Shown piece by piece: positions 9,757 through 61,580 of a stretch of DNA of 64,000 nt. The stretch lies in the IMG/VR virus record IMGVR_UViG_3300036546_000248, one strand, 5' to 3'. This stretch comes from a virus. Lineage: Duplodnaviria; Caudoviricetes. The translations under genes were made by a program, and so were the position numbers. Each line of letters starts with the position of its first letter. The stretch's first letter is position 1. The notes under the pieces are model-generated. The model worked only from the letters and a program-made list of their open reading frames with translations, was not told where the DNA came from and did no database searches.

Positions 9757-10080
9757 GTCAGCTCCGAAACCAGAAGAGGGCCTAAAGAAAAGATCACTCA
9801 TACTGATAACGGAGAGGGGGGGCATAAGAACCCAACCCCAGCCCCTAAGGGCCGGAGTGGGCAGGAGGAAACGGGAAAGCCATCCGACAACCAATCCCCT
9901 GAGAGCCATAGGCTGGGGGAGTCCGTAGGTGCCAAGGGATTGCTGGATCAACTTCCCCAGAGCGATGTTGGGCCAAACACCTCTCATACTAAGGTTAGAA
10001 AAGTAGTTAATTACTGACCCTGTTAAAAAACACCACCTGTCCTGATAATATGTCTTAAGGGCCTGATTGGAGTACCAACG

Positions 10081-11544
10081 ATGTCGCTGCCCGTACCTAG
10101 CGAGAATATTAAAGGCATTGAATGTAAACACGCGGTTTACACACTGCCGAATGACGATGGTGATGGGGATGCCCTGATCGTCAAAGAAGTCATTCACACC
10201 AAAGACGGTCAATTGATCCCGAACCTCAAGATCATCGAAAACTACAAGCGCGATTTTTTCTATGCGCGTGAAGGTCAACGTAACTATACAGAAAAGAAGA
10301 CTCAAGAAAAAATTAATAACCTGCAACGTTACACCTGCACCCAACGTAACCTGCTCAGACAGATTGCGCGGGCTAAAGGGGTGGGTACTTTGCGTGGGGG
10401 TTTGCGTCAGATTGCACGCGACCCTTATTTGTACGGGTGTGACATCACCACACCCACGCTCCTTAAACGTGAATACCAACTGCGTTCTCCAGATTGCTTG
10501 TCCCCCAATGGCGTAGCGGTATTCGACATCGAGACGGATGTTGTCCACGGTACTGAACAACCCATCCTGATGGCCTTGACGTTTAAGGACAAAGTCTACC
10601 TGGCTGCGACCAAGTTCTTTGTAGGTCAAGACGTTCGCTTCTTGGAAAAGCTTAACAAAGCCATTGAAAAGTACTTGGAGAAGTACACTAAAGAGCGCAA
10701 CATTACCTACGAACTGGAGATCGTTGAGACACCCGGTGAAGGCATTCGGCGTTGCTTTGCCAAAGCCCACGAATGGAAACCTGAATTCGTCACCATCTGG
10801 AACATCGACTTCGATATCCCCAAATGCGTCAAGCAATTGGAAGCTGAAGGAATTGATCCAGCTCAAGTTTTCAGCGATCCATCGGTTCCCGAGCGCTATA
10901 AGTTCTTCCGCTACAAGCAGGGCAACGCTACTAAGAAAACCGCTTCGGGTCGAATCGATTCGATTCACCCAGCCGAACGGTGGCACGTAGCCGAATGTCC
11001 AGCGACGTTCTTTCTGATCGACAGCATGTGTGTGTACAAGCGTATTCGAATGGCTAAGCAAAACCTGCCTTCGTACAGCTTGGACTACGTAATGAAGGAG
11101 GAGTTGTCGGGGCTTGGTAAGCTTAAGTTCGAAGAGGCCGACGAATATGCAGGGTTGGCATGGCACGTGTTCATGCAGACCTATTACAAAGTCGAATATG
11201 CGGTCTACAACATCTTCGACTGTATCGGTGTAGAACTGTTGGATGAGAAGACCAAAGACTTGCAGCTGGTTATCAGTACCCAGTCGCGGGCTTCGGAATA
11301 CACCATCTACAATTCGCAACCTCGTCGTTTGGTGGATGACTTCTATTTCTTCTGTCGTGACCGAGGCTATATCCTAGGTTCGTGTAGCAACGAAATGGTC
11401 CATGAATTGGACGCTTACGTTGTTGGCATGAATGGACACATCGTGACCTTACCCTCTCACCAGACAGTGGATAACGGCGTCCGCGCTATTAAAGAACTGC
11501 CTGATGTAAGGACCTACATTCGTCGTCACGTAGCCGACTTGGAT
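10081..11544 (+). CDS. Split family-B DNA polymerase, N-terminal gene (phiKZ gp82-like), exon 1
   Basis: Exonuclease motifs FDIETD, WNIDFD and YNIFD; ends VADLD at the start of polymerase motif A. Confidence 0.88.
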
Positions 11545-11901
11545 TAATTAAAAGTCCCTTCAGACTGGAAGGTCTGAATGTAAACTCTTCTAATTGCTGG
11601 AAACCCCTGAGAGCTGTTCCACCACTGCGAGGCGAAAGCCAAAGCCACGGTTTGAAAACGGAACGGATTGGGCAACCGTGGGTCCTAAGGACCCCTTTAG
11701 CAGCCAAGCTCCTCTATGCGAAAGCAGTGGAGAAGGTTCAACGACTATCCCGCAAGGGAGTAGGGACAAGCGTCCCGAAACGGAGAGCACCCGACCCACC
11801 GTATGGTGAAGGGTGATGATATAGTCTCGGCATGTGGGGAAAGCCCACAGCAGTGCTTGATCGCACGGGGTAAAGTGTTGCGACTTAACCCGAAGATACC
11901 G
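11545..11901 (+). mobile_element. Group I intron (IA2-like, ORF-less, 357 nt) in the DNA polymerase gene
   Basis: 5' exon ends in U; P1 GGAU/GUCC with a U-G pair; P AATTGCTGGAAA; Q TAGCAGCC; P7 GACTA(11743)/TAGTC(11822); P3 CTCTTC/GGAGAG; P7.1 and P7.2 hairpins; terminal G11901; splicing restores DLD-IVSTYPN. Confidence 0.92.
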
Positions 11902-12132
11902 ATTGTCAGCACGTACCCGAACGTTCAGGTGATCCTGAATATCTCGCGTGAGACCACGCTTTACGAACTGTACAAGATCAAAGGGTGTAATGAATACCAA
12001 ATGAGAATGGCTGGGTATAACCTGACAGGCGGTCACGTGAATGCGGTAGAAATTGCAGTCGACATCATGAAAGCCCCGAGCTTTGATCGGATGCTGGCAG
12101 AGTTCCTTATGGACCATCCAGACGCAGCATAA
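11902..12132 (+). CDS. DNA polymerase N-terminal gene, exon 2
   Basis: IVSTYPNVQVILNISRET completes DxxSxYP motif A; spliced product is 564 aa. Confidence 0.9.
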   Translation: MVSTYPNVQVILNISRETTLYELYKIKGCNEYQMRMAGYNLTGGHVNAVEIAVDIMKAPSFDRMLAEFLMDHPDAA

Positions 12133-12143
12133 AAGGGTTGTAC

Positions 12144-12180
12144 GCTAGGCTCCCTAGGGAGCCTAGTGCTTTTATGCCGC
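12144..12180. terminator. Bidirectional terminator with TTTTATGCCGC box
   Basis: GCTAGGCTCC/GGAGCCTAGT stem between convergent genes. Confidence 0.8.
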
Positions 12181-12635
12181 TACTTCCCACACCAGTCGTA
12201 CTTGGTACCGCCGTCATAGGCGACAGCATGTCCACGTTCAACCATGGCGGTTCCTACATTGATGTCGTCTATGTAGACATCAGCCAAAAGACGGAAATAC
12301 TTATCTCGGGCAAGGTTATGGAGTTCGATCTTCTGACCGCCTCTCAGTGCCCCTAATAGAAAATCTTTAGCCAAACCTGCTTTGTGACGCTCCGCTGCTC
12401 GCAGGACGTCGGTACTGCAACTGCTGCGAATCTCCGGGGTGTCTATCCCGTTGATCCTGACAGGTAACTCATGACCAAAGACATCCAACATCCCAGGCAG
12501 TTGTACCTTAAAGGTATCGCCATCATAGACTTCGACTACATTAGCCGAAGGCATGCGGATCATGTCAGTGGCCCACAGTGGACTCGGGAGCAATAGCGCA
12601 CACAAGAAAACTACCCGGATTAAAAGAGAACGCAT
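12180..12635 (-). CDS. Thermonuclease (SNase-like) with signal peptide
   Basis: VYDGDTF, RINGIDTPE and DKYFRLLA motifs; MRSLLIRVVFLCALLLPSPLWA leader. Confidence 0.85.
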   Translation of the reverse strand: MRSLLIRVVFLCALLLPSPLWATDMIRMPSANVVEVYDGDTFKVQLPGMLDVFGHELPVRINGIDTPEIRSSCSTDVLRAAERHKAGLAKDFLLGALRGGQKIELHNLARDKYFRLLADVYIDDINVGTAMVERGHAVAYDGGTKYDWCGK

Positions 12636-12794
12636 ACCCCACCTCACCAAAAAAAAAAAGAAACAGTTAAGCCTTCGACACCCAGCCACAGAAGTGACTG
12701 GGCGCCTTGGGTCATACCATTTCTGGGGGGGGGGGAGGTTAAGTCCTTCTAAAACAGCATAAAAAAAGAAATGGGGTCCGAAGACCCCTTTAAT

Positions 12795-13112: not shown

Positions 13113-13148
13113 TTACGTGTTCTCCCTAGAACTTGAATGAGCAGTCGT

Positions 13149-13985: not shown

Positions 13986-14444
13986 TCAGTCGTCGTAGGA
14001 AGCGAGTTCCTCTGCAATCTGTTCTGCCTGTCGAGCACGACAGCTACCACAGACTTCATAGACCGGACCGTTTGAACCTTCATCGATGTCACGCGTGTAA
14101 CGAAGGTCTTTCTGGGTGGTGACTTTCTTACACCACTCACATTGAGCTTCGTCTTCGGCATGCCTCTCGGTGAAGTACTGCTGAAGCTCCTGCTCGAGCG
14201 TATAACACTCTTCGCAGTAATGGTAATACTCAGCGCCGAACGAATCGGTTTCGCCTTGTACACGCACCGTAGCGTCGTTCTCACACTGCCACTCTTCACC
14301 CTTGGCGTACTGAAGCTTCAGAGCATCAGATGCTTTATTAGCATCGATGATCTCCTTCATGGTTTCGAAGTAGCCGGATTGTTCGAACTCACATACTGTG
14401 GATTCACGAACAGTGGTGACACGACCTGGAAGATTACTGAACAT
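13986..14444 (-). CDS. Cys-rich (zinc-finger-like) hypothetical protein
   Basis: CEEC, CEWC and CGSC motifs; AGGAG RBS; early-type promoter upstream. Confidence 0.7.
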   Translation of the reverse strand: MFSNLPGRVTTVRESTVCEFEQSGYFETMKEIIDANKASDALKLQYAKGEEWQCENDATVRVQGETDSFGAEYYHYCEECYTLEQELQQYFTERHAEDEAQCEWCKKVTTQKDLRYTRDIDEGSNGPVYEVCGSCRARQAEQIAEELASYDD

Positions 14445-14500
14445 AGTGTTCTCCTTAGAACGAGGGGGGAATAAGTGGTTTGGTTAATCCACTCACCTAG

Positions 14501-14508
14501 GTAATATA
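14501..14508 (-). promoter_or_regulatory. phiKZ-type early promoter (TATATTAC)
   Basis: TATATTAC preceded by an A-rich tract, upstream of 14444. Confidence 0.65.
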
Positions 14509-14522
14509 GATCTGAGATTTTT

Positions 14523-14978
14523 TTATTTCGGTAGGCTCAAATCGAAGCATTCTGCGAACTCCAAGACGAACTCATCCATCCAATCTTGTACGTACATCAC
14601 GTTCCAGTAAGGGGTGGCTTGAAGTCGTTTAAAGTCCAGTCGGGAAACTCGTTGTAACTGACCCAAGATCCTCTCGATTCTCCGCATGAGGAAAGGAACC
14701 TCCTCCACTTGGGTTTGTACAGTTTCACGATAGACCACCAAATACGGATGGTCTTGGTGCACACTAAGCTCACTGACAACCACCTCGGCTAAATACAACC
14801 GAGCCCCTATGTCCACTTGGGCCTCAATCGGGAGGATGTGGCCATAGTAGTTGTAGAGGGAATCGGAAGTCAGGTTGAGGTGTGGGGTGCGCGGTACAAT
14901 CTGGGTAACAAACCGATCAAAGTCGGTAATCTCACGATTATCAACTTCAAGAACCAAATACCTGATTACACTCGCCAT
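14523..14978 (-). CDS. Hypothetical protein
   Basis: 151 aa; GGAG RBS. Confidence 0.65.
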   Translation of the reverse strand: MASVIRYLVLEVDNREITDFDRFVTQIVPRTPHLNLTSDSLYNYYGHILPIEAQVDIGARLYLAEVVVSELSVHQDHPYLVVYRETVQTQVEEVPFLMRRIERILGQLQRVSRLDFKRLQATPYWNVMYVQDWMDEFVLEFAECFDLSLPK

Positions 14979-15416: not shown

Positions 15417-15475
15417 GTGACATCCTTAGTTTAAGTTTATTCAAGGTATAGTTCAAAAAAGTACGATATTACTAT

Positions 15476-15645
15476 GACTACAGGCAATGAACATTCATTG
15501 CTCACGAGGAGGTGATCCACTGAGGGGTCTGGTCCTGCCGAGACGGCACCATCCAGCCCAGTACCAGCGCCTGTATAGTGACTGCTGAGAAGCAGCCATG
15601 ACTTCAGCCTCTAAAGCCCTCACCCGAAGGTGAGGGCTTTATGCT
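15476..15645 (+). ncRNA. Candidate structured small RNA with extended complement to the 16S rRNA 3' end
   Basis: No convincing ORF; GATATTAC/TATG promoter-like signal at 15465-15476; closing stem TACAGGC/GCCTGTA; several hairpins including a GAGA tetraloop; ends at hairpin 15613-15640 plus TTTATGCTGC. Confidence 0.55.
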
Positions 15646-15647
15646 GC

Positions 15648-30215: not shown

Positions 30216-30216
30216 C

Positions 30217-40510: not shown

Positions 40511-41900
40511 CTTTGATGTTTCTGCTATGTGAACCAACTTACACAACTGGACTTGTTGTAAACTGATTTAATCTACCTAAAGCCCATGGGGTGTTATAAA
40601 CGAATGCCCACGGACCTACTTGTCGAATGACATCCTTCTTAAGGGTTGTCGTTACAGCTTTCTTACTCAGACCTTGAGTGGTGTGGAACAGACTGGCGCT
40701 CTTAAACACCGAGACTTCGCCCGTCACCACATTCTTGGCCAACACTTCTTTAGGACCTCTACCCAAAGCTCGATCCAAAGACTCTTGGTCGATTTCGGGC
40801 AAACCTTCTTCCTTATACGCACAGACATAACGTTTGTTAACCAAACGCAAGACATCGCCTCTGGACATACATTGGAAGATGTGGCTGGGAAGTGCATCGA
40901 TAGCACGCCCTAAAAGACCCATCGAAGGGTATTCCTGAACTTCGTTGGTCTGGATATCTAAACACAACACTGGTCGTGAAGGCTGTTGACCCAGACTATC
41001 CCTTTCACGGATACGAGCTTTGTGAAGCTGTTCGGGGATTCTATCCTTTGTTCCATGGTGGGTGAGTACCCACCCATCGATAGGGATTCCTTCCTTAATG
41101 TGCTTCCAAATCACCTCAGGTTGATACCCGAAGTGCTCTCCCGCATGGAACAGGTCTCGGAGGAACATACACACACCGTCCTTATCAGCCAAAATCCGCG
41201 GACGTGATTCTGACTTAAAGAGTGCAGCGTGTATATTGTTAACCTTAACCGTTGCCCATTCGAGGTTTTCTACGTCGTTATTGGTACAGTCTCCATCGAT
41301 GTGGTTCACTGTTAACTGACTAACGTCCCTATCCCACGGTAAGTGTGCCAAGGCCACCATCCGATGAACGCCGAACGTTGGCATACTGCCATCCAACATT
41401 CTAACGTTAACCGTGATGTAGCCGTCAAGGTTGACGTAGTAATTCTTCTCAACGCCTTCGGAGTCAAAGATCCTACCGCACCGAGAAGCCATATACCCGT
41501 CAGTGCCCGGTATGATCTTCAAATCCATAACGTATCCTTTTCTTTATTTACACATAGCAGAAACGCACGAGTCGTTAATTCGTGGTTACCTGTGGTCCAG
41601 ACAGATAACTTCCTCACTTTCATGAGGCGGTAGACTATATCTTCTTCCAGTTTCCCAGAAGCTCCCTGTTTCGAATGTCACTTGACACCCTACTCTACTC
41701 GGTTCGTCTCTCGACGCCTTTCGATAGTCGTTGAACCTTGTCCGTAACTTGTCTCCCGACAATTTGTAGGACCTTGGCTGCTGATTGTCCAATCTCGATT
41801 CTTTTCAAACCATGACGTTTATCGTTTCCGATTCCGCTTTGGTGAACCAAGCTCTAAGGAGTTTCCAGCAATTTAAGGAGTTTAATGACGGCAATACTCT
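40511..41900 (-). mobile_element. Group I intron (IA2-like, 1390 nt) carrying an HNH endonuclease
   Basis: P1 UGACGGU/GCCGUCA with a U-G pair; P10 AGAGUAUU/GAUGCUCU; AAUUGCUGGAAA; AAUCAGCAGCC; P7 GACUA/UAGUC; terminal G; 14-bp inverted repeat (41551-41564/40518-40531) loops out the ORF. Confidence 0.95.
40539..41528 (-). CDS. Intron-encoded HNH homing endonuclease (NUMOD4-HNH)
   Basis: VHRMVALAHL...VNHIDGDCTNNDVENLEW; NUMOD4-like N-terminus. Confidence 0.92.
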   Translation of the reverse strand: MDLKIIPGTDGYMASRCGRIFDSEGVEKNYYVNLDGYITVNVRMLDGSMPTFGVHRMVALAHLPWDRDVSQLTVNHIDGDCTNNDVENLEWATVKVNNIHAALFKSESRPRILADKDGVCMFLRDLFHAGEHFGYQPEVIWKHIKEGIPIDGWVLTHHGTKDRIPEQLHKARIRERDSLGQQPSRPVLCLDIQTNEVQEYPSMGLLGRAIDALPSHIFQCMSRGDVLRLVNKRYVCAYKEEGLPEIDQESLDRALGRGPKEVLAKNVVTGEVSVFKSASLFHTTQGLSKKAVTTTLKKDVIRQVGPWAFVYNTPWALGRLNQFTTSPVV

Positions 41901-43157
41901 ACCGTCAAAATCAGCATTCATACCCCCTAGTACTAGGACTGATAAGCTCACTGTATTGACGTTGATGTCTTCACTCTTGATGCGGGTGACGTACAGGCGT
42001 TGCGCCGACAAACGGGTCAACGTAGGGTTACGTTGGAAGATTACCGGGATGCCCTTACGAGGCGATTCGGCGATCATTTCCTTGAAGATCTCATCGATCA
42101 GAGGATGGTACCGCAAGGTGTGTTCGAACAACAGCTTGTTGATTTGCTTGGGCGAATACCCACGATGGAGCAGTTTGGCCGTCAGGTGAGTTTTGAACAC
42201 CATGATGGACAGGGACCACGGGAGTTCCAGTTCCTCATGATGGTGTTGGTCTGAACGCGAGGTGATTACAGCCCGGAAGCTGAAATGGTCACGAGAACCA
42301 AACACGTGTTTACGCCACCAACCTGTTTTACTACCCAACTGCGCACCGATGAACGGGGCATAGTACTCAGATAGCATCACGATGGCCGTGACGGTACGTT
42401 TCTCGATTTCCTCTTGGCTCAGTTTGGTTTGACTGTGCACAATGCCGCTGATGGTGTAAATCGCATCAATGGCAGGGCGCATGGTCAGGTCACCGTACAG
42501 GCCTGTAGCTGCCTTCTCGATGATGAACGCCGCTTTCGACGGGATGGGCACCTTATGGCTGAAGATCAGATCGCGGTACAAAGCAATGAAAGTGCGTAGG
42601 TATTCCACCTTACGCTTCTTCTTATTGTCGTACAGCGGCCCTTCCTCCGAGCACATCAGTTGCATGATACTGTCGAAGTTGTGGTAGAAAGAATTCAACC
42701 CCCGCTTATACCCTTGTGCCGAAAGGCTTTGGGTGAAGAACTCCATCTTCTTATTCGGTGGGCGATATCCCGGATTGATCAACCAGTCCAGTAGACTGAC
42801 GCTCTTGATCGTCATCTCGGACTTCAAGATCACGTAGACCCAGGGGTTGATCAGACGTTCTACCCCTTGAGGGGCAGCAATCCACAACAACGCCTCCAGC
42901 GGCCGTTCCGTAGAAGGCAGGCAGAAGTGGTTACAGATTGGACAACGTACGCCAACGTTGTACTGATACTTCAGGTAGCCGCAATCGCATGAAGGTACGA
43001 TATCAAGCGACTCACCAGTGTACTTGGTGATTGCGAGGTTGTGGAGAGCGTCTCGGTCCTCTTTGCTGTCGATTTGATAATCGTTAATGATGAGCGGTAC
43101 GCTGGTCAGTGAATCAAATAGCTGATCGTGGTTCACGATCTCTGCACAGACACCCAT
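41901..43157 (-). CDS. nvRNAP beta-prime N-terminal subunit (phiKZ gp55-like), exon 1
   Basis: Zinc finger CDC...CPIC, FSFRAVI, RNPTL and NADFDG; spliced product is 476 aa. Confidence 0.92.
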
Positions 43158-43232: not shown

Positions 43233-45230
43233 TTAGCGACCCCAAACACCGCTGAACGCCTGGTTCCCGAAACGGGTACCGTAGTTCGGCTGGATCGCGC
43301 CCGAGGACATCCAGTTACCCAGGTTCGGGTTGACCAGCTGGCCTTGGAAGGTGTAGCCACCGCGAGTTGCACCCTGATTGAACGAATCAACCATGTTGCC
43401 CGGACGTACGGACAGACCGGCTTCTTCGATCGAATCGCTCAGAGCCTTGATGAACTGCTCGGAGAAGGTCACGCGACGCGCGAAGCCCTTGACCACGACG
43501 CTGCCGGAGAGCAGGCGATCGATGATGGTCTTGCGCTCGTGCAGACGCACAGCCAGCGGGATGTTGCGATCGAGGTGAGTACGCTCCCACTTCTCCACCA
43601 GAGTCGGATCGTCCTTGCCAGCCAGGTTCAGGATGGCGAGGTAGTCCAGCTCACGCAGATCACGCAGGTGACCGTCGCTGTTGGTGTAGTAGCCCAGGTG
43701 GATGCGGTCAGCATCGTCGAAGCACACCGGCGCATCGAACGGGAAGTGCTTCTCGAAGCGACCCAGGGTCAGGCGGTTGGCCGCCATCAGGATGCTCTTA
43801 CGCGCGTCTTCGTTCTTGTTCGCCGCAGCGATGAAGGTCTGCTGCAGCCAGCTCAGTTCACCAGCTTCTTCGATGTCCAGCGTGTACAGTAGCTGCTGGT
43901 TGAAGAACATGCTCATCATCTGAGCAAACTGCTGGTCACCGAAGTTGGTGGCCGAAGTGTCGATCTTGTTGCCCGGTTGACCAGGGTTGGCCGGGTCCTT
44001 GATCTCGTAGCCGATGGCGCCGATATCGCGGAGGTTGATGCCCTTGCGAGCGTTGGCACCTTCCGAGTACGCCTTGAGCGGACGACGGAAAGCGTTCCAC
44101 CAGTTGCCACCACGACCCAGCTGTACTGCAGTCGACAGCGCCAGGAGTTGGAGTTCCATGGACACGACATCGGTCAGTGATTCGACGGAGGTCAGTACGA
44201 GGCGAGGCTGGTACATCACACCCGGCATCATCTGCTGCGGCTGCATCATCGGGAACATGCCGAATTGCTGCTGAGCAGGTTGTTGCGGGTTGTACATCAG
44301 ATCGACGTAGCCGGTCACACGGGTCAGTTCACGCGGAGGACGCATGTCCAGACCTTGGGTGTCGGCGTTGTTGCTGGCGCTGACGGTCAGCTCGATGTCT
44401 TCGCGAACCGGCAGGCCCACGATGTTGGTACCATGAACCGAACCGTACTCGGAGCGAGCGGTCAGGATGTCCTTCTCGCCGAACTCGGCCAGGGTGAAGG
44501 GCGGAGCCTCGGCACCCAGCTTCAGATCCAGCACAGCCCAGACGGCCTGAACGCTGTTGTGCAGCCAGTCTTGGAAACGCTCGACCGGAATTTCCTTGTC
44601 GATCTCGGTCGGGATCACGGTGCAACCGGCATCATGCACTTGGGCATTCACGCCGAAGGTGTCGATCACGAACTTCTTCACGGTGTCCCAGTGGGACTTG
44701 TGGTTGTAGATGTCGCTCGGTGCGAAGATCGTTTCGATGGTGTGGCCATCGATGGTGGTGATGTTCGGCTGCAGCGGACGGCCAGAACCTTCGATCATCA
44801 GGTCGTAGACGCCGATGTGGGTTTGACCCTGATGAACTTCCTTCATGCACACGAGGATGCTGGAGTAGTTCACTTGCAGCTGGTTGCTGTCCAGCACCAG
44901 GAAGCGGAAGGCTTCGAGGGTCTTGGTGTCCATGACACGCTTGGCGCGTTCCAGGAGACCGTCGTGGATCTTCTGAACGGTTTCACCGCTCATGTTACGG
45001 CTGACGAGGCCGCGGTGCTGGCTGTTCACGTTCATGATCGAACGGCCGGCCTGGCCCACACGGGCGGAGGTATTGGTGTTCATGGTGGTCCCTCCCGATT
45101 CCGGGATCTGCTGCTGTTGGGGTTGGGGAGCAGGTTGAGCCTGCTGGGTTTCGTTAGCGCCCAGGCCAGCTTGACGCATGGCATCGGCCAGGCTGCCGTT
45201 GGATTTCCCGCTATCGCGATTGACACTCAT
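43233..45230 (-). CDS. chmA: Chimallin, phage nuclear shell protein
   Basis: 665 aa from MSVNRD (GAAGGA RBS); Q-rich N-terminus; RDIGAIG...IDTSATNFGDQQF, RDLRELDYLAILN and FIKALSDSIEEAGL resemble 201phi2-1 gp105 as recalled; directly upstream of the gp55-like gene. Confidence 0.88.
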   Translation of the reverse strand: MSVNRDSGKSNGSLADAMRQAGLGANETQQAQPAPQPQQQQIPESGGTTMNTNTSARVGQAGRSIMNVNSQHRGLVSRNMSGETVQKIHDGLLERAKRVMDTKTLEAFRFLVLDSNQLQVNYSSILVCMKEVHQGQTHIGVYDLMIEGSGRPLQPNITTIDGHTIETIFAPSDIYNHKSHWDTVKKFVIDTFGVNAQVHDAGCTVIPTEIDKEIPVERFQDWLHNSVQAVWAVLDLKLGAEAPPFTLAEFGEKDILTARSEYGSVHGTNIVGLPVREDIELTVSASNNADTQGLDMRPPRELTRVTGYVDLMYNPQQPAQQQFGMFPMMQPQQMMPGVMYQPRLVLTSVESLTDVVSMELQLLALSTAVQLGRGGNWWNAFRRPLKAYSEGANARKGINLRDIGAIGYEIKDPANPGQPGNKIDTSATNFGDQQFAQMMSMFFNQQLLYTLDIEEAGELSWLQQTFIAAANKNEDARKSILMAANRLTLGRFEKHFPFDAPVCFDDADRIHLGYYTNSDGHLRDLRELDYLAILNLAGKDDPTLVEKWERTHLDRNIPLAVRLHERKTIIDRLLSGSVVVKGFARRVTFSEQFIKALSDSIEEAGLSVRPGNMVDSFNQGATRGGYTFQGQLVNPNLGNWMSSGAIQPNYGTRFGNQAFSGVWGR

Positions 45231-45292
45231 CAGTTTATTTCCTTCAGGTTTGTTTGCGCAAACAACCCACACATCGGTGAGTATTCCAATGG

Positions 45293-45300
45293 GTAATATA
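45293..45300 (-). promoter_or_regulatory. Early promoter of chmA
   Basis: TATATTAC about 63 nt upstream of the ATG. Confidence 0.65.
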
Positions 45301-45439
45301 TACCCGATTTCTTTTCGAATACGATTCAGGTGACCGATAGCGATCATGCATCCTAAATCCCTTGGCGGAAAACCCACCAAGTTGTATTCGTCTATACCAT
45401 AGGTGAGAATGTAATTAAATATCTAATCCACATTCTTCC

Positions 45440-46932: not shown

Positions 46933-46969
46933 GCTAGGGAGGGGCGACCCTCCCTAGCTTTTATGTCGC
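46933..46969. terminator. Bidirectional terminator with TTTTATGTCGC box
   Basis: GCTAGGGAGGG-GCGA-CCCTCCCTAGC. Confidence 0.85.
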
Positions 46970-49132
46970 CGTTTCCCACTCTTGAACGAAATCACTCACC
47001 AGCTTGGTGTTGTTTCCATTCACCAAGAAGATCCCAAGGGCTTCAAGGATGAGGTAGAACGGCCGAACGGTTGAGTAGACAAGTTTACGGATGTTCATTG
47101 CTTGCACCACTTCTTTAGGCAATCCTCGACGCTCCACATTGTCCTTGGGGAGGAGTAGTGTAGTCATTCCAGGTTTGTTGGCGAAGTGCTTGGCAATTTT
47201 AGCAGCAACCTCCGGGTTTTCAATAGAAGCGATCCATTCCTGAATGGCTGTCTTGTTGGAAAGATCTAGCGATACCTTAATGGCTGGGTAGGGTAGCTCA
47301 GGAGCGTCCCCATAGTGCGGGGCAAAGATATCCTGCCAATACACGTAATGTTGATACGGGGACTGGCTCGGGTTGGTGTAGGAGTTGGCCGTCTTAACCG
47401 ATGAACGGGCCAAGTATTCAGACTTACCTTTAACCACAGAGTCGATAATACCGAGTTCGATATTGGCAATTTTGCGGTAAAGGTCAATCATCGAGATTTG
47501 TTGGTCTGCGATGACCGTGTCCATGATCTCCTTGATGGTCTCCGTCACCACCGCCATAATCTGTGGCGGACAGTTCGAGTCCTTCAGGTAAACCCCTTTG
47601 ATCTCCTCCTCGAGGTGTTTGAAGACGTTGCCTTCTCGTGCTGCCTTGTAGGCGAAGTAGTGTTTAGCCATAGAAGTCAGACCGAACACCGAGAATGCAA
47701 ACTCATTCTTCATGGCCAGAACGTTCAGCTTTTCGGGAATAACACCCAAGATGGTCGACAGTTTAGCCAAGACATGGATAATTGACTGAGATGCCAAGTA
47801 CACCATGGTGTAGTTGATGCTAAAGGCTTCTTCGCTGAAGTCCACCTTGCCCAAGTACCACTCCACCCAGTTCTCTACCGCAAAGATCGTGGAGTCCGTA
47901 TCAGAGGTGATTGCCACATGACGCATGGAGTTACGAATCCGTGCGACGGATGCAGGGACGTTGTCCGTTACCCAAAACGCCTCGATCAACAACGCGTATT
48001 GCTCAAGGGTTTCGATAACCTTCTTCGCAAATTCACCCATGACGCAGATGCCATGAATGTCGTTAGCATTCCCTTGTTCAGCCGACTCCTGTAGTTTCTT
48101 CAGGGTGCGTCCGTCCAACTCTTTGGCACAGATCAAACTGACGTAGGCTTTAAGGTCATTGTCCATCCCCTTCACATAAACCTTGGCATCTGTGTATGAC
48201 AGGGTGGTGCCGGTAGGTTTGCTGGACATGATTTGGAGGAAGGTGTGTACGAAGGTTGGGTTGTACTTTGCCAGATGCCACATGTCGCCTACGTAAACAA
48301 AGGCTGCACGTTCTAAGGGTTGGAGACCCTCTACCAACTTACGGACTTCCAACTCCTGCTTATTGTTACGCCAGTAATGGCGGGTACTGTAGAGGATGAC
48401 ATCCATAACCTGATCGACACTGGGGATTGTCAACCCGTAGGTCTCTACTGCTTTGCCCACCAGGTTGTAGTCGACATGACCGATGATGGAGGTGATGTTA
48501 GCCAAGACCACATCAGGGGCCCAGTAGTGACGATTACCCGCCAAGAACTTCTCGTTGTTGGCATTACCGTAACTTGTAGCTACACGGCAGGTAGACGTCA
48601 AGCTGGAGTGGGCCGACTTATTGTAGAATATTGTTGAAGCCGAAGCTTGACCACCAGAGATCGAGTTGTTGGCGATCTTGTACGTGGACTGTTCGTTCTC
48701 CTTAATGTCCGCCACCACCATATTACCCGCCATTTTAGCATCGAAGGCCTCGTCTTTAACCTTAGCGCGACCCTCAATGTTACCGGTAACGTAGATAGAG
48801 AGGAGCGACTCTCGGCGATTGGGGTTCTCGTATACGGTCATGGCAGGCGAGAACAACAACCTACGGTCTTTGATGTTGTTAAGGTATTCGGTGTACGTTA
48901 GGACCTTTTGTTCACGGTCACCGTTTTTATTACGGGCCAGGTGCAGAACTTCTGGATCTTTGATCTCCAAACGACCGCCACGTGCCGTCACTTGGTTAAC
49001 CCAGGCCTGACAAACCTCAAGAGGTTTACCGGTGCGCTTGGACAGATAAAGAGCCATGTCACTGCGATAGTTTCCCAGCACATCCAAGTCACGGTTGTAA
49101 TGGCTGGCGGGCTTAATGAATGCATTGTTCAT
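46961..49132 (-). CDS. Split family-B DNA polymerase, C-terminal gene (phiKZ gp50-like)
   Basis: Motif B KIANNSISG and motif C SDTDST. Confidence 0.88.
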   Translation of the reverse strand: MNNAFIKPASHYNRDLDVLGNYRSDMALYLSKRTGKPLEVCQAWVNQVTARGGRLEIKDPEVLHLARNKNGDREQKVLTYTEYLNNIKDRRLLFSPAMTVYENPNRRESLLSIYVTGNIEGRAKVKDEAFDAKMAGNMVVADIKENEQSTYKIANNSISGGQASASTIFYNKSAHSSLTSTCRVATSYGNANNEKFLAGNRHYWAPDVVLANITSIIGHVDYNLVGKAVETYGLTIPSVDQVMDVILYSTRHYWRNNKQELEVRKLVEGLQPLERAAFVYVGDMWHLAKYNPTFVHTFLQIMSSKPTGTTLSYTDAKVYVKGMDNDLKAYVSLICAKELDGRTLKKLQESAEQGNANDIHGICVMGEFAKKVIETLEQYALLIEAFWVTDNVPASVARIRNSMRHVAITSDTDSTIFAVENWVEWYLGKVDFSEEAFSINYTMVYLASQSIIHVLAKLSTILGVIPEKLNVLAMKNEFAFSVFGLTSMAKHYFAYKAAREGNVFKHLEEEIKGVYLKDSNCPPQIMAVVTETIKEIMDTVIADQQISMIDLYRKIANIELGIIDSVVKGKSEYLARSSVKTANSYTNPSQSPYQHYVYWQDIFAPHYGDAPELPYPAIKVSLDLSNKTAIQEWIASIENPEVAAKIAKHFANKPGMTTLLLPKDNVERRGLPKEVVQAMNIRKLVYSTVRPFYLILEALGIFLVNGNNTKLVSDFVQEWETAT

Positions 49133-52879: not shown

Positions 52880-53084
52880 AGGTTAATCCTTTCTTTAAAG
52901 GGGTCGGCCACTTCACTAAGATGTTATAGGTTTGAAACTTCTTAGGATGCGTTACAAGGGGTTCTCTATAAAATACGTGGTCAGGTATTGTTTAACAGAC
53001 GAAAACGTTATCTGGCGCTTCCTAGAGGGCTTATAAAGGATTTAAGGAAAAGGCGGCATAAAGGGAGGGGCGAACCCCTCCCTC

Positions 53085-53490
53085 TACACCCCACCTTCTG
53101 GGTGGAAAGGAGTAAACTGACCGGCCTGGTAACGTACGAAGACTTCCCCTTAAGCAGCCCTGTACCTACCAGCGATGTTCTCTGTACGACACAACACCGT
53201 TCCCGAGTCGTTGTTGCATCAGAACATACACCAGCCTCGTTCACCCACTGAAAAACCGCTACCCCGCCCTACGGATTGTAATAACTTTGCTCGCTCCACC
53301 GTGCGCAAACAAACAAATGAACGGTGGCAAAGTCCGGGTCACTTCTGTATTCATCCACACAGCTTTCACCGAGACCCATAACTCGGTTATCCGTACACAC
53401 GGAGCAGCGCCATAGACGTTGCCAGCGGAGAACACTCGGTGTTAATCCATTGTCCGTGAAAGCCAACGGATTTTTTTTTTCAGTACCGAT
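53085..53490. ncRNA. Candidate large structured ncRNA (about 400 nt)
   Basis: No credible ORF; nested long-range stems; flanked by terminator hairpins 53062-53083 and 53531-53548. Confidence 0.5.
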
Positions 53491-53565
53491 TAGATCGCAT
53501 ACTATAGGGCAAAGCCCCGAGAAAAAAAAAAGGAGGCCGAAGCCTCCTGAGGTTTTTGTGCCACC

Positions 53566-54396: not shown

Positions 54397-55008
54397 ATGA
54401 CGGCTAAACTTACTTCCCTCTTCGACACAAATCTCAGTTTGGTTTATAGTGCCGAAGGGATCGAGTTGGTTGATGCGGCTAAACGCCGTGACGCACCCTC
54501 GATTTACATTCTGTTGACGGACACCAAGACCCAGTTTAGCAAAGTCAGTAAACTGATTACGGGTGATCCCTACAACCATGTGTCCTTGATGTTAACCGAC
54601 AGTTTCGACGATCCTATCTACACCTACGCCTTGAACAACGGCATCAGTTCACTTAAGGGCGGTTTCATGGTGGAAGATCGTTCTAACTTGTACGGTTCAT
54701 TTTATTCGCTTTACGAGTTAAAAGTAACAGGCGCAGCGTACCGTCAGATCAAGGAACGGGTAGAGTACCTTGCGGCAAATCCCAATCAGACTCGGTATAA
54801 CCATCTGGGTTTGTTCAACGCCATCTTCCGCAAGAATATCTTTTCCTCTGAGGACGGGCAGATCTCCATCTGTTCTGAATTCGTGGTTGAGGTCTTACGC
54901 TTTGGCGGCATAGAACTCTTAAAGGGTAGACTCGGTAGCACCATCCGGCCTTACGACCTGGTGCGCTCCAAGCTACTGAAATTTGTACGCCGAGGCAAAA
55001 TCAACTAG
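54397..55008 (+). CDS. Permuted papain-like (NlpC/P60, YiiX-type) protein
   Basis: YNHVSL...ICSEFV with His before Cys; AGGAG RBS. Confidence 0.75.
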   Translation: MTAKLTSLFDTNLSLVYSAEGIELVDAAKRRDAPSIYILLTDTKTQFSKVSKLITGDPYNHVSLMLTDSFDDPIYTYALNNGISSLKGGFMVEDRSNLYGSFYSLYELKVTGAAYRQIKERVEYLAANPNQTRYNHLGLFNAIFRKNIFSSEDGQISICSEFVVEVLRFGGIELLKGRLGSTIRPYDLVRSKLLKFVRRGKIN

Positions 55009-55266
55009 ACGGCATAATTAGGAAACGCCCCCGTCTCGACTCGAGTCAGGTCTGAGTGTCTTTTGCTTCGCTGCTGCCTCAAAGGGCTGCTGCTAGCTTG
55101 GACTACTGCCTGGGCTGCGGCCGAGGGGGGGTGTTCTTTACTGCTTTTGAAGCTATCAAGCAAACCCTAGGGGGGTGGACAGCTGATAGAGGCCGTTCGT
55201 CCTAGGTGTGTTACTATTAACGACTGCTGGGTTGGTAAACCCTTTACTGCCGAACTTAATCGGTTC
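55008..55266 (-). ncRNA. Candidate ncRNA with repeated GCAG motifs
   Basis: Starts at the G of TATATATG; nine GCAG motifs; small hairpins; ends at TTATGCCG. Confidence 0.5.
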
Positions 55267-55344
55267 ATATATATAGCGCATCAATAGACGCTTCTATCTT
55301 AAACCATGGCCCTGAACCCTGTGAACTGGCGGGGGGTTTTATGC

Positions 55345-55845
55345 CGCGCGTTAAAAGGCCGCGGACTCACCTCAGATATATGTTCAAAGATAGACGCTCC
55401 GTTGACCGCCAGCACTGACCGAACCACCCAAATGACTTGGCGCCATTGGTAGCATAAGGTCAGCATGATGAGTAGCAGAAAGAAAAAGATTCCTTGTATG
55501 CTCGCATGGACGGTTGATGGGAAATAGGAGACGTCTGCGCCTTACAGGCACCTTAAGCCTGGGGTGCGAATCTCCCACCAATGTGCGTCGCCTAGGCCAA
55601 CTCTCATCCACTACAAACCCGTAAGCTGTTTTAACACGGGGAATATCGATTCCTTCTCGTGTTACTGCCTCGTGTTGAAAGGACCGTAAAGTGTAAGCCT
55701 TCTGCGACCAGCCGTTGGAGGTGGTATAGTAGCCGACATCCACACCCTGAACTTCAACCCCCGCTGGGATTCCCTGATTCAGCAAGTGCGCCAACGCCAA
55801 TGCACCCATACCACCGATGATCAAGACTCTTATACAAAGCCCCTT
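55345..55845 (-). other. Structured region: ncRNA or a doubtful 146-aa ORF
   Basis: Long-range stems that need G-U pairs on the minus strand; ORF 55384-55824 has a poor RBS and an atypical second half. Confidence 0.35.
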
Positions 55846-55914
55846 ATTAAAAATGGTGGGTTGGTAGAGCGACCAGGAAAAGGTATCGCTCTAGGCTCCA
55901 ACCCCACCAAAACC

Positions 55915-56076
55915 TTAACAGACCATCTCGGGAACCGGGATGCCCAACTCTTCGCACCGTTTCTCCAAATCAGCTTGGGCTTGTTGAAACTGCTCAATCC
56001 GCTTCAAAGTCTCTTCTCGAGCCTTCGGATTCGGTGTGGGTAGCTTCAAGTCGCTTAACTTGATTGGACGGAGCAT
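55915..56076 (-). CDS. Small hypothetical protein (53 aa, not in the ORF track)
   Basis: GAGGA RBS; MLRPIKLSDLKLPTPNPKAREETLKRIEQF...; followed by a long hairpin and T-tract. Confidence 0.6.
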   Translation of the reverse strand: MLRPIKLSDLKLPTPNPKAREETLKRIEQFQQAQADLEKRCEELGIPVPEMVC

Positions 56077-57010: not shown

Positions 57011-57020
57011 ATAGTACCTC

Positions 57021-58001: not shown

Positions 58002-58128
58002 ATGAATTCACCTTGTATTCAGGTTAAGTTTAGTACATAGGGATTACCGTTTATAGGTTGGGTAGATCCCTACATGGGTTTATGCTGGCATCTCTTCAAA
58101 GAAATACCAAACACATATCTTTTTTTAC

Positions 58129-58728
58129 TTACAACAAATCCACGAGGTCGCGTTGTTCTTGAAGCTCCTGTTTAAACGCCTGTGTGTACAGGTTTGGATA
58201 GCGGGCATAACCTTGACTACCAAACTTCTCTTTAATGTGTGTCAATGCTCCTTTACGGGCGGCTTCGTGATTATCCCCTCGATGGAGTCGATACTCAATG
58301 GCGCGTTGGAGCATGCCTTTAAGATTCTTATCCGGGAACCCCCGATCTGCTGAGGACATCAATTCAGCAAACTGGTTGGTAAACGGCTGCTGGTTAGACG
58401 CCCGGTGTTCACGACAACCTGAGGCCACCAAAGAACGCTCTTCAGGGTCCAATTGAGCGATCAGTGGGTAATCAGTAGTCATGATCCACTCACCGGACAT
58501 CAGGTGGTGGTTGTAACGACTCCACGAAAACAAGTCGTGGAAATAAGCAACCAACAGAATAAGTTTGGGGTTAAAACCCAAACGTAATTTATTGTTGATG
58601 TGGAGTCCTGTCAACTCTACGTTGCGGAAATGGTCTACTCGATGGGCGGCATCATTCAACGACCACGCATGAGAGAAGTCACTGATGATGGTGAGCCGCA
58701 TGTCATCGAGTTCATCTTTGTTCGACAT
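58129..58728 (-). CDS. HD-domain phosphohydrolase
   Basis: HRVDH, AYFHDL, HH and SADRG motifs. Confidence 0.75.
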   Translation of the reverse strand: MSNKDELDDMRLTIISDFSHAWSLNDAAHRVDHFRNVELTGLHINNKLRLGFNPKLILLVAYFHDLFSWSRYNHHLMSGEWIMTTDYPLIAQLDPEERSLVASGCREHRASNQQPFTNQFAELMSSADRGFPDKNLKGMLQRAIEYRLHRGDNHEAARKGALTHIKEKFGSQGYARYPNLYTQAFKQELQEQRDLVDLL

Positions 58729-58759
58729 CTTCATTCTCCTAAGAATTGCTGGGTTGGGT

Positions 58760-58972
58760 TTATTTATCGCTGAGGGCAAAAGCCTTGTTAGCGAACTCGA
58801 GGGCTTTTTTCATACAGGCATCTTTAACCGGACCTTCACGATGACTGTCAGCTTCAATAACCATCAGGTCGGCCTGTTGAAAGAACTGCTCCGCCTTACG
58901 ACGGTTCTCCCAACGTTTGACTGCATGTGCTGCACGCTTTCCCCAATGTACAGGGTTAATCCATTTGAACAT
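58760..58972 (-). CDS. Hypothetical protein
   Basis: About 70 aa from MFKWIN; GGAG RBS. Confidence 0.5.
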   Translation of the reverse strand: MFKWINPVHWGKRAAHAVKRWENRRKAEQFFQQADLMVIEADSHREGPVKDACMKKALEFANKAFALSDK

Positions 58973-59101
58973 GATAGTGCTCCAATCGACTGAAGGCTGG
59001 ACATTACTTCCCACAGATAGTATACACCTGAATTATTTTCCAATAAGAGATTGACTTACCCGCAATTTTATAGAAGGGGAAACTAACGTAGGACCTTAAC
59101 T

Positions 59102-59920
59102 ATGAACGCCATTCAAAAAGCTCTAAAGGACATTCGAACCAGTATCCCCAAAGAGATCCTGGAACGTACGTTCTTAACCCAAAACATGTCTGCCTTCGGT
59201 GGACGTCATAACTTCCAACCTTTGTCGTTGGATCAACGCATTCGTGAGGCTGTGATCGATGGAATTGTTTTGCCGGATTGTCATCTTGTGGGTGGCACTG
59301 AAGTCACTGTCCCGCTTGGCTCAGTACGTCCCGAGTACGTCAACTCGTACAACCTCGTTTATCGGGTGCCGAAGCACCTCACCCAACAGCGCAGTATCGT
59401 CCGTGTTCTCCATATAACCTTCGGTGATGGCGGTATCGCAGGGTCGATGAACCTAGGCCTTCAAGGCCGCTCTGCGGTATTGGACAAAGCCCAAGGGGTT
59501 TTGCAGTCACGCCTGCCGATTCCGATTGTCTCTACCGCCAACATTGAGTTGATCGGTGAAAACACTGTACTGGTGCGAGAGAACATTGCCATGCCAGGCA
59601 ATCCGTACCTGCGGTGTGTGGTCGAGAACGATGCTGAACTCAATGGCTTCTTACCTGCAGCCATTTTGGTGTTTGGTAAGATGTGTGTGTTGGCCTGTAA
59701 GGGCTACATCTACAACAACATCAACATCAGTATGGACCAAGCCCAGCTCTCGGGTGGTATGGCCTTAGGTCGGTTTCGTGAAGTGGTGGACGGGTATTCC
59801 GACGCCATGGAACAATACCAAACCATGTTCGATGAACGCTGGCGAAAGGTGGCGCTCCTCAGTGACCCGAGTCAACATTCAAGACACCTTAAAATGATTA
59901 CTGGTGGTCGTTGGGGCTAA
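59102..59920 (+). CDS. Conserved chimallivirus protein
   Basis: 272 aa; AGGA RBS; followed by hairpin 59929-59951. Confidence 0.65.
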   Translation: MNAIQKALKDIRTSIPKEILERTFLTQNMSAFGGRHNFQPLSLDQRIREAVIDGIVLPDCHLVGGTEVTVPLGSVRPEYVNSYNLVYRVPKHLTQQRSIVRVLHITFGDGGIAGSMNLGLQGRSAVLDKAQGVLQSRLPIPIVSTANIELIGENTVLVRENIAMPGNPYLRCVVENDAELNGFLPAAILVFGKMCVLACKGYIYNNINISMDQAQLSGGMALGRFREVVDGYSDAMEQYQTMFDERWRKVALLSDPSQHSRHLKMITGGRWG

Positions 59921-59965
59921 CACAACCAGAGGAGGGGACGGTCCCCTCCTCGTAAGGATTTCTTT

Positions 59966-60721
59966 ATGACTCTTAAAAAACCCCCGTATCAAGAAGGTCC
60001 CGATAGCACCTTCCGTCATATGGACAAAGATTACCAACTCGACCCCCTACTAGCCGATGCTGCGAAGTTACCTGTCAAACAAGTCCATACCAACCAATTG
60101 GAATGGAACTTACGTTTCGGGGAACCGGACCCCATCCGCTTGAAAGAGGCTGATACCCGGTACCCCATCATCATCACTGAAGAGCCTCGGTTTGGTTGGG
60201 TGATCCTTGATGGCTTTCACCGCTTCTGTAAGCTGATCGAACAAAAACGCACTACCTGTTCGGTACGGATCATTCCCAGAGAGTGGCTCAAACGCTACAG
60301 GGTGTCTCTGGAGAGCGATTCACCCATCACGGTAGGTCGAGCTACCTTAGATCAAGCTAAAGCCTTCCTGGAGCCTCTGGGGATCATTTACAACCTCCCT
60401 CAAATGGGTGCCATCAACTACTCAGACGTCCCGCACCAATACACCTTCGCCTACCAGCAAGAACAACCCGTAGGACTTCTGATCACCACCACCTTACACA
60501 ACGACTTCGTGTCTTTGAACGTCAACCCAGAAGCAGACTACATCCACGTAGGCGGTACGCTGTTAAATTCTGTAAGGATCAATCAGGTATTGGTCAGGAC
60601 AGAGGACGAGGCGTTAAACAGCCTACTCAAGTATGCAGGGTATCGCCTGGCTGAGTCTTTGGTGAAGTATAACCTTTACCGTAAAGTCTTCTCTGCCTCT
60701 GAGTTCCTCTCTATTCAGTGA
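59966..60721 (+). CDS. ParB-like domain fused to a GNAT-like domain
   Basis: PIII...ILDGFHR; C-terminal VG.L...LNVNPE...VGGTLL. Confidence 0.55.
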   Translation: MTLKKPPYQEGPDSTFRHMDKDYQLDPLLADAAKLPVKQVHTNQLEWNLRFGEPDPIRLKEADTRYPIIITEEPRFGWVILDGFHRFCKLIEQKRTTCSVRIIPREWLKRYRVSLESDSPITVGRATLDQAKAFLEPLGIIYNLPQMGAINYSDVPHQYTFAYQQEQPVGLLITTTLHNDFVSLNVNPEADYIHVGGTLLNSVRINQVLVRTEDEALNSLLKYAGYRLAESLVKYNLYRKVFSASEFLSIQ

Positions 60722-60733
60722 AAAAAAAAAGCA

Positions 60734-60775
60734 GGGCATAAAAGCTACAGGGGAGCTAGGCTCCCCTGTATGCCG
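60734..60775. terminator. Bidirectional terminator with TATGCC boxes on both sides
   Basis: TACAGGGGAGC-TAG-GCTCCCCTGTA. Confidence 0.85.
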
Positions 60776-61105
60776 TTACCACACGTAGTTACGAGCAGCA
60801 GTAGCCGCTTGAGAGAAGTCCAAGTCGAACAAGAACGTTCCCACAGGCGTTACCGCCTGATACCGATGTGCACTCGGGGTTGGGTTAGACCGACGAGCAA
60901 AGAACTCAGGGTCTTCCAACTGTACCAAGACTTCATGATGACGTCCTACCACGTCTACCAGAGCACCCAGTACTTTAGGTTCCAGTCGCCCAGTCAGCTC
61001 CAGGTTACGACTAGGGTTTTCGCCGATTTTCTCACGGATGACCCGTAAGGCTTGAGCGTAGCGTGCACAGACGACTTCGTTATCTTTCCAGACGTTGTTT
61101 TTCAT
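60776..61105 (-). CDS. Hypothetical protein
   Basis: 109 aa; CAA-rich leader without an SD. Confidence 0.55.
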   Translation of the reverse strand: MKNNVWKDNEVVCARYAQALRVIREKIGENPSRNLELTGRLEPKVLGALVDVVGRHHEVLVQLEDPEFFARRSNPTPSAHRYQAVTPVGTFLFDLDFSQAATAARNYVW

Positions 61106-61580
61106 GTTAAGTGTTGGCTCGTTGTTGTTGGTTCACTTACACCCCAACTCCACTGGAGGTTACGTTGGTTAGGTGCTTGTGTTTAATAGGGTTAGTTAAC
61201 AGTAGAGACGTAAAAGGTTTTTCAAAAGCATAGGAAGGGAATCTTCGATTCCCTGCTCTTTAGCCCCCTTTCCCCCGCCAGTTCATGGCCTTTACGCTAC
61301 GCTCCAAGACCATTCACGCGAGTGAAATGGGATTGGTTTAGCTGTCAGTCAGTCCTAGTATCTCCGCTTACGCTTCGCTACTACTCCTTCCTTCCGCTTT
61401 TATGTCAAAGCCATACCGAAGTAATGTAAAAAAATACTGACACAGGAAAACAAGACTAGATAACCCTAAGAGATACCCCAGAGGGGATCTAAAAAAGCAA
61501 ACATTTATCTATGCCCCGCCGCCCCGCGCTGCCCGCCGGCATAACCGGGCGCAACGGCCGAAGCCGCCCGCCCAGCCTAC

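Follow-up and report, generated by a model that had tools for sequence, protein, structure and literature searches.

Candidate structured RNA elements conserved in a phiKZ-like, chimallin-encoding phage

What is encoded in the unusually long gaps between the genes of a nucleus-forming phage? We addressed this question in a 64,000-nt stretch of DNA (hereafter, the window) from IMG/VR virus record IMGVR_UViG_3300036546_000248, in which an original prediction had placed at least five structured units free of open reading frames (ORFs), and possibly a sixth. The intervals concerned, at 9.9, 15.5, 53.3, 55.1, 55.6, and 61.3 kb, are designated R1 to R6 in window order. Our comparative analysis makes it likely that R1–R5 represent structured RNA elements conserved in a jumbo phage that is phiKZ-like and encodes chimallin and that R6 is an ordinary non-coding leader. 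R1–R5 are a mixed set and not one system.

All six intervals exist as predicted and lie between real genes. The gene map was a codon-usage gene call checked against PHROGs, and flanking and internal ORFs were searched against Pfam and PHROG to fix the boundaries; the start of gene 8494–9756, for instance, was fixed via phrog_2767. Because the median intergenic spacing is ~65 nt, the gaps at R1–R6 are unusual. The elements delimited within them are as follows.

R1, 9822–9985, minus strand: ~164-nt candidate structured leader or small RNA (sRNA) upstream of virion structural gene 8494–9756; gap 9757–10080.
R2, 15476–15645, plus strand: ~170-nt unit between two minus-strand genes; gap 15417–15647.
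R3, 53055–53498, minus strand: ~444-nt two-domain RNA; gap 52880–53565.
R3 family core, 53244–53361, minus strand: GACCCG, a covarying helix, a hairpin with a U-rich loop, a UCCG-UAGNN-CGGG hairpin, and GUAGCGG.
R4, 55010–55266, minus strand favored: ~257-nt element between convergent genes; gap 55009–55383.
R5, 55350–55835, minus strand: structured region of ~480 nt that immediately precedes R4 on this strand; the interval 55384–55824 is taken up by a 146-codon minus-strand ORF with a low score.
R6, 61224–61412, minus strand: non-coding leader upstream of gene 60776–61105; gap 61106–61580.

Relatives were recovered via gene 54397–55008, which lies between R3 and R4. Four IMG/VR contigs contain intergenic DNA alignable to the window, two of them ~95% and two 77–86% identical; further matches to this gene came from three distant contigs (63% amino acid identity) and six metagenome contigs. 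The R1 and R2 loci were taken from the same relative records. The window and its near and mid relatives constitute clade A, which comprises three independent lineages. Over 44–64 kb, the intergenic candidates are 77–86% identical, compared to 67–88% for coding DNA, and this equal conservation argues against neutral spacer. The original prediction had named lack of conservation among the outcomes that would count against it; we found intervals conserved like coding DNA, five of which have structure beyond that of controls.

Structure was evaluated by running RNAalifold on the window and its relatives and comparing the consensus energy to that of column-shuffled alignments (z). Coding segments of the same lengths from the same loci were put through the same procedure as controls. 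The z values, base pair counts, and structure conservation indices (SCI) are listed below.

Coding controls, 400 nt: z from −0.1 to −2.2; 1–15 compensated pairs (6–15 at similar divergence) and 13–36 broken pairs; SCI 0.45–0.62 at similar divergence and 0.70–0.83 in the two best-conserved controls.
Coding controls, 180 nt (n = 16): z from −1.9 to +1.3; 0–5 compensated pairs.
R1: z −11.3 on the minus strand and −2.5 on the plus strand; 15 compensated pairs.
R2: z −5.9 and −5.5 on the two strands; 0 broken pairs on the plus strand.
R3, minus strand: z −10.1; 29 compensated and 7 broken pairs; SCI 0.86.
R4: z −7.2 on the minus strand and −4.6 on the plus strand; SCI ordinary for its conservation level.
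R5: z −8.6 on the minus strand and −3.5 on the plus strand; SCI 0.79 on the minus strand versus 0.55–0.62 on the plus strand.
R6: z −2.5 and −3.3; SCI 0.51–0.60.

Measured against these controls, the five units at 9.9, 15.5, 53.3, 55.1, and 55.6 kb are structured as predicted, although the 55.6-kb unit was wrongly described as ORF-free. The possible sixth unit at 61.3 kb is at or near control level. No ORF of at least 25 codons is common to all three lineages in R1, R3, R4, or R6, and none of the six intervals matches Rfam 15, either at the gathering threshold or at E ≤ 5. As judged from the alignments, R1–R4 are non-coding, conserved, and subject to compensatory change. Single-sequence z values against dinucleotide shuffles are −1.6, −4.46, −4.36, −2.4, −1.1, and −2.70 for R1 to R6, respectively. 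Since single-sequence thermodynamics supports only R2 and R3, the assignments of R1, R4, and R5 rest on comparison.

The R3 element begins at CTATAGTATGCG (TATG, with G at 53498), directly past the terminator of the upstream gene. A 5′ domain that extends to ~53244 is followed by a three-way-junction 3′ domain (~53095–53243), a strong terminator hairpin (53055–53090), and UUUAUGCC; a separately conserved promoter region lies beyond this terminator. Compensated changes occur at 27 of the 150 pairs in alignment A2. The G–U pairs had been read as pointing to the plus strand, a placement contradicted by the mean fold energies, which favor the minus strand (−180 versus −134 kcal/mol).

Only a 32-nt block of R3 aligns to distant relatives, in which it sits just upstream of arrays of 8–13 tRNAs on the same strand. 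The pattern CCGTAGNNCGGGGTAGCGG matched 14 IMG/VR contigs, one of which (L026) was spurious according to a covariance model search; the remaining 13 belong to at least four lineages, and two further metagenome contigs also contain the family. Taken by themselves, the distant lineages yield a consensus structure with 13–18 compensated pairs, and a covariance model built from them with clade A excluded found window positions 53244–53361 on the minus strand at 43.1 bits (E = 2.4e-10). Comparison with these lineages also led us to replace our first alifold model of the R3 5′ domain with one containing an ACUUUGC/GCAAAGU helix. In the alignment of all 15 family sequences (A13), 96.5% of cells are paired, compared to 80.4% after shuffling and 35–48% with slid partners. 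Both sides have changed in 15 of the 27 pairs, and none of 500 shuffles attained the covariation score of 0.377 (versus 0.157). Neither 50,697 phage records nor 185,579 species genomes contain the motif. On this comparative evidence, the 5′ half of R3 belongs to a new RNA family, defined here, that spans several jumbo-phage lineages.

In each non-A lineage for which downstream sequence is available, the R3-family RNA is followed by tRNA genes on the same strand. Neither ARAGORN nor RF00005 identified a tRNA in the window, and there are no RF00005 matches in clade A genomes G002, G004, and G005, which include a 222,670-bp record rated 100% complete. Because tRNAs lie downstream in the non-A lineages and clade A has none, R3 appears to have outlived a tRNA operon that it once led, and we infer that its 5′ domain is the ancestral leader of that operon. 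As the alignments indicate, the clade A RNA has gained a second domain and its own terminator. Since the clade lost its tRNA genes yet kept the RNA, R3 must work alone; it would most likely serve as a protein-binding scaffold organized around an invariant 19-nt element and the U-rich loop.

Several features of the distant contigs lie close to these RNAs. At the site syntenic with R3, tRNA arrays of 5–13 genes are found in L005 (5722–8677), L006 (3999–8705), L007, L011, L012, L027, and L036. Directly after the R3-family RNA, L005 (8966–9092, minus strand) and L006 (8986–9113, minus strand) have a 127-nt Rfam tRNA match (36–45 bits) that ARAGORN skips and that looks like a tRNA with an insert of ~55 nt past the anticodon region. 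Between this odd tRNA-like gene and tRNA-Tyr lies a conserved stretch of ~300 nt (L005 ~8680–8965, minus strand; also L006, L011, and L012). It is not a tRNA, has no Rfam match, and may be a further structured RNA within the tRNA array.

R2 combines a AAAAGTAC motif near −24, a TATG with G at 15476, and a terminator hairpin (15614–15640). Because TTTATGC follows this terminator on the plus strand only, we place R2 on that strand, where it would be antisense to the spacer between two minus-strand genes. Alignment A5 reveals an invariant 70-nt core that includes AGGAGGTGATCCA, along with two hairpins containing compensated changes. R2 is 89% identical in G005 and ~90% identical in G004, compared to 70–77% for the flanking genes. 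Alignment A5 and lineage comparison revealed no conserved ORF: a 33-codon plus-strand frame is broken by indels, and a 27-codon minus-strand frame lies in invariant sequence, with every change non-synonymous.

The tract AGGAGGTGATCCA (15507–15519) is an exact 13-nt complement of the conserved 3′ end of 16S rRNA. It is unique in the window, sits between two stable helices, and is invariant in the five aligned copies and in a sixth contig, all from clade A. R2 would be a stand-alone RNA of ~170 nt with an accessible, invariant Shine–Dalgarno-like tract. That this tract pairs with the 16S 3′ tail and captures or reprograms cytoplasmic 30S subunits is an improbable extension of these data, as is the separate proposal that the R3 family constitutes a new class of large, structured RNAs that are linked to phage tRNA biology yet work without any phage tRNA.

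The original prediction went further, proposing an RNA layer specific to the nucleus-forming life style that would act through ribosome capture (R2 with 16S rRNA), export through the chimallin shell, or sponging of defense proteins. The complementarity of AGGAGGTGATCCA and its invariance in all six copies favor this idea. However, R2 is found in clade A only, and a search for homologues in distant clades yielded just an 11-mer in clade C, a chance match because it lies inside an ORF. Blocking the anti-Shine–Dalgarno sequence would also harm the phage, whose own genes use Shine–Dalgarno sites. Inspection of R1 and R2 found only 6 bp of complementarity between them, and the GCAG-repeat “sponge” proposed for R4 fails because several GCAG sites change in relatives. 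Ribosome binding, export, and sponging are speculation, and we regard such a layer as highly improbable.

At R1, a conserved TTAGTATG (TATG, with G at 9985) marks the start, with a TAATTAAC motif near −24. A small covarying hairpin, a long stem, an unpaired invariant CCGUUUCCUCCU tract, a covarying terminator hairpin (9831–9864), and UUCUUAUGCC follow in that order. The sequence of the long stem is almost wholly replaced in the mid lineages with pairing retained, and 15 of 57 pairs in alignment A7 have changed on both sides. The CU tract is left unpaired in the minimum free energy fold. An open frame of 941 codons (8494–11319, minus strand) runs past gene 8494–9756, through R1, and antisense across the DNA polymerase gene. 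It is not a gene because indels in relatives break the frame within R1, although a frame of this length is remarkable.

Gene 8494–9756 starts 66 nt past the end of R1, giving the order of start site, short RNA, terminator, and gene that is typical of premature termination in a 5′ untranslated region (UTR). R1 could therefore be a premature-termination leader that releases an RNA of ~164 nt, and its exposed CCUCC tract could pair with Shine–Dalgarno regions. Complements of the 12-nt CU tract occur 10 times in the window versus 5.4 expected and are not enriched.

R6 has the same layout as R1. It contains a conserved GGTATGG with G at 61412, a purine-rich GGAAGGAAGGAG tract, one covarying mini-hairpin, and a terminator hairpin (61236–61256) followed by UCCUAUGCUUUU; a second TTATGCC is found at 61544. 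Alignment A4 shows conserved blocks with 7 of 126 pairs compensated. By these measures, R6 is non-coding, at most marginally structured, and indistinguishable from coding controls.

The arrangement of these elements relative to promoter and terminator signals bears on how they are expressed. In phiKZ, the late promoter requires TATG, with G as position +1, and middle promoters carry AAanTTACc near −24 (PMC4666361). A conserved TATG is present at the 5′ edge of R1, R2, R3, and R6, and an A-rich motif ending in TAAC or GTAC is found near −24 in R1 and R2. R5 lacks such a TATG. R1, R2, R3, and R6 each end like intrinsic terminators, with a strong hairpin and a U-rich tail of the form ...UAUGC (UUCUUAUGCC, UUUAUGC, UUUAUGCC, and UCCUAUGCUUUU, respectively); the hairpin stems of the first three covary, and the 3′ end of R4 is atypical. 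TTTATGC occurs 15 times versus 5.5 expected, and a strong hairpin followed by TTATGCC(G) is found at 14 or more intergenic sites. Given this excess, the recurrent hairpin–TTATGCC arrangement, and the phiKZ TATG and middle motifs, it was reasonable to speak of a promoter and terminator grammar. The claim that this grammar frames most of the units holds for those at 9.9, 15.5, 53.3, and 61.3 kb, is doubtful for the one at 55.1 kb, where TATG is lost in L004, and does not extend to the 5′ side of the one at 55.6 kb. For most units, the non-virion RNA polymerase of the phage probably initiates at TATG-type promoters and terminates at hairpin–UUAUGCC terminators.

Terminator hairpins at 6809–6858, 12127–12177, 23187, 30207, 60741, and 61544 lie between a GCATAAA and a TTTATGCCG. 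The flanking motif exceeds a U-tract and contains the phiKZ late core TATG, which suggests combined terminator–promoter modules. In addition, an AT-rich element, AAATCTCAGATCTATATTACCTAGG, lies at 14493–14530 (minus strand) upstream of gene 13986–14444. It occurs once in the window and in several copies per relative genome, and it may be an early promoter consensus for the virion RNA polymerase.

These signals are also compatible with elements that act solely in cis as parts of mRNAs, for example as attenuators, 5′ or 3′ UTR structures, or terminator–promoter modules, without separate RNAs accumulating. R1 and R6 are directly upstream of same-strand genes, R4 lies within an inverted TTATGCC pair like bidirectional terminators elsewhere, and R5 has no promoter motif of its own. 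Moreover, ONT-cappable-seq of phage 201phi2-1 found 11 sRNAs, of which 8 derive from premature termination in 5′ UTRs, 3 are intergenic, and 1 lies just upstream of a tRNA (PMC11512511). An exclusively cis role is harder to reconcile with R2, which lies antisense to both neighbors and is equipped with conserved promoter-like and terminator signals of its own, or with R3, which ends in a strong terminator before a separately conserved promoter region. The R3 family is also not tied to one downstream gene because it precedes tRNAs, ORFs, or a second domain depending on lineage. We consider this explanation somewhat unlikely for the set.

R4 is enclosed by an inverted TTATGCC pair (55017, minus strand; 55339, plus strand). 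Near-invariant blocks at 55005–55052 and 55107–55283 surround a hypervariable hairpin (55053–55106) that is closed by a helix of ~22 bp whose innermost pairs covary. In L003 and L004, the core is 93–96% identical, compared to 76–80% for the flanking genes (alignments A3 and A10). R4 could instead function at the DNA level, for example as an origin of replication, as a site for packaging or recombination, or as the target of a DNA-binding protein. Its ~180 bp of nearly invariant sequence between convergent genes, its TATATATA tract and long inverted repeats, and fold energies that leave its strand undecided would all fit such a role. Nonetheless, an invariant core around a hypervariable hairpin with a compensated base is a pattern typical of RNA. 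Four one-sided changes, from G–U to G–C or U–A, preserve pairing on the minus strand, which we favor. R4 is also present in a single copy per genome, as are R3 and R5, at odds with a mobile-element reading of the three. A DNA-level role for R4 is, on balance, decidedly unlikely.

In L005, L006, L007, and L012, a conserved minus-strand structure (z = −5.8, SCI 0.77) is located 340–640 nt downstream of the homologue of gene 54397–55008. This region is syntenic with R4 and R5 and has no detectable sequence similarity to either.

Several observations weigh against reading R1–R5 as structured RNA elements. All units are known here from sequence alone. Only three independent lineages are available for R1, R2, R4, R5, and R6, which makes the power to detect covariation low, and single-sequence folding is weak for R1 and R5. 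The SCI of R4 is unremarkable, and its core cannot show covariation because it is nearly invariant. TATG is short enough to occur by chance about every 256 nt, and the R4 copy is not kept throughout the clade. Finally, the R5 frame is open for 104–176 codons in eight variants, and the ratio of non-synonymous to synonymous substitution (dN/dS) in its central part (82 codons) is 0.22–0.29 versus L004.

The last two points also favor the explanation that some intervals are missed or decaying protein genes, with R5 being a small protein gene or a Rossmann-type remnant whose structure signal is secondary. Read by eye, the N-terminus of the 146-codon window frame resembles a GxGxxA beta-alpha-beta motif. 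However, R1, R3, R4, and R6 contain no shared ORF, and the R5 frame has no Pfam or PHROG match. Its only homologues are eight close ones (104–176 residues), none outside the clade, and the AlphaFold2 model of the protein has a pLDDT confidence score of 37. In most comparisons, dN/dS for R5 is 0.49–0.82 at a synonymous divergence (dS) of 0.16–0.31, versus 0.07 and 1.2 for the neighboring gene. Both ends of the frame vary by lineage, with lengths of 146, 145, 147, 109 (L003), and 82 (L004) amino acids in five copies.

R5 has 13–14 compensated pairs. L004 lacks the N-terminus of the ORF and retains the helix pairing (alignment A11), and two alternative versions of the peptide correspond exactly to a hairpin swap with compensated changes. 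We lean toward R5 being a structured RNA in which the frame is a relic or incidental. R5 may also be, or may once have been, a small protein gene, in which case its mRNA would be highly structured; across the intervals, we hold the protein-gene explanation as a tentative alternative. Together, R4 and R5 make up ~830 nt of structured sequence that could possibly be one long minus-strand RNA or 3′ region.

A neighboring 53-codon gene (55914–56076, minus strand) is below the default length of the ORF list. It is kept in all four relatives, with a dN/dS of 0.08–0.27 in comparisons where divergence is greater, and a long hairpin comes after it at ~55858–55905.

The only Rfam matches in the window are two group I introns outside the six intervals.

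Group I intron, 11535–11850, plus strand: RF00028, 61.1 bits (cut-off 50); interrupts the DNA polymerase gene.
Group I intron, 41611–41910, minus strand: RF00028, 79.8 bits; in the RNA polymerase beta-prime-like gene 41805–43157.

The DNA polymerase gene matches phrog_3011 and has exons at 10081–11547 and 11803–12132. Window positions 11545–11910 are missing from five of five relatives, which points to a recently gained or mobile intron. In the beta-prime-like gene, the match to Rpb1 domain 2 is marginal (25.2 bits versus a cut-off of 25.3). These introns are part of the RNA repertoire of the phage even though they lie outside R1–R6.

The identity of the phage was predicted correctly. Pfam searches place chimallin (PF25677, E = 5.7e-59) at 43233–45380 and a divergent family B DNA polymerase at 46961–49132, and split RNA polymerase subunits were also matched. 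By these encoded proteins, the window, which has a G+C content of ~51%, is from a phiKZ-like, nucleus-forming jumbo phage. Its closest chimallin matches are merely 26–30% identical, and a megablast search of 50,697 phage records matched only an intron, revealing no deposited phage that is close at the DNA level.

In nucleus-forming phages, where transcription and translation take place apart, RNA biology is barely charted: two model phages have had their small RNAs mapped, and none of these RNAs has an assigned function. Our comparisons, which do not depend on RNA-seq, add evidence that a distant clade of uncultivated phages retains at least five structured RNA elements. The R3 family normally heads a tRNA operon and survives the total loss of phage tRNA genes, making it a concrete experimental target. 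Short of a demonstrated function such as ribosome binding, we regard the result as incremental and not as a surprise. The small-RNA concept is not new for such phages because the sRNAs of 201phi2-1 are documented (PMC11512511); of the uncharacterized RNA layer that had been proposed, what is supported is that this phage carries structured non-coding RNAs in five of the six intervals.

The sRNAs of 201phi2-1 and phiKZ are short units, mostly with a promoter closely before a terminator in a 5′ UTR (PMC11512511; PMC10914365). Of the layouts seen among these sRNAs, R1 resembles that in a 5′ UTR and R2 the intergenic one, and the R3 family shares the position upstream of a tRNA. 201phi2-1 also has a conserved leader sRNA upstream of the tail gene gp182 (PMC11512511). 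R1 is not this sRNA, as its downstream gene is a homologue of PhiPA3 gp086, another virion protein. R3 (444 nt) and R5 (~480 nt) far exceed the reported units of <250 nt. No sequence or Rfam link was found between the two groups, and the window RNAs are recognized only through their sequences.

Regulatory sRNAs with C/U-rich seeds (for example, RsaE/RoxS and RNAIII) mask Shine–Dalgarno sites by pairing with GGAGG. R1 likewise has an unpaired, invariant CCUCCU tract beside a terminator hairpin. Unlike these sRNAs, it has no identified target in the window and may act only in cis.

R3 also invites comparison with the large phage-encoded RNAs GOLLD (RF02032) and ROOL (RF03087). Like them, it is >400 nt, multi-domain, supported by covariation, and encoded by a phage, and such RNAs are often near tRNA genes. 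In contrast, R3 has no match to either model even at E ≤ 5, is smaller, and occurs in a narrow group of uncultivated jumbo phages.

The tRNA cluster of phage T4 encodes two stable RNAs, species 1 and 2 (RNA C and D), with no assigned function. The R3 family is similarly a non-tRNA structured RNA in or at the edge of a phage tRNA operon, presumably freed by tRNA processing, and the clade B member ends within ~10 nt of a tRNA-like gene. It has no detectable sequence similarity to the T4 RNAs and is larger (~250 nt or more). A clade that has lost all of its tRNA genes still retains R3, which there has a further domain and a terminator of its own.

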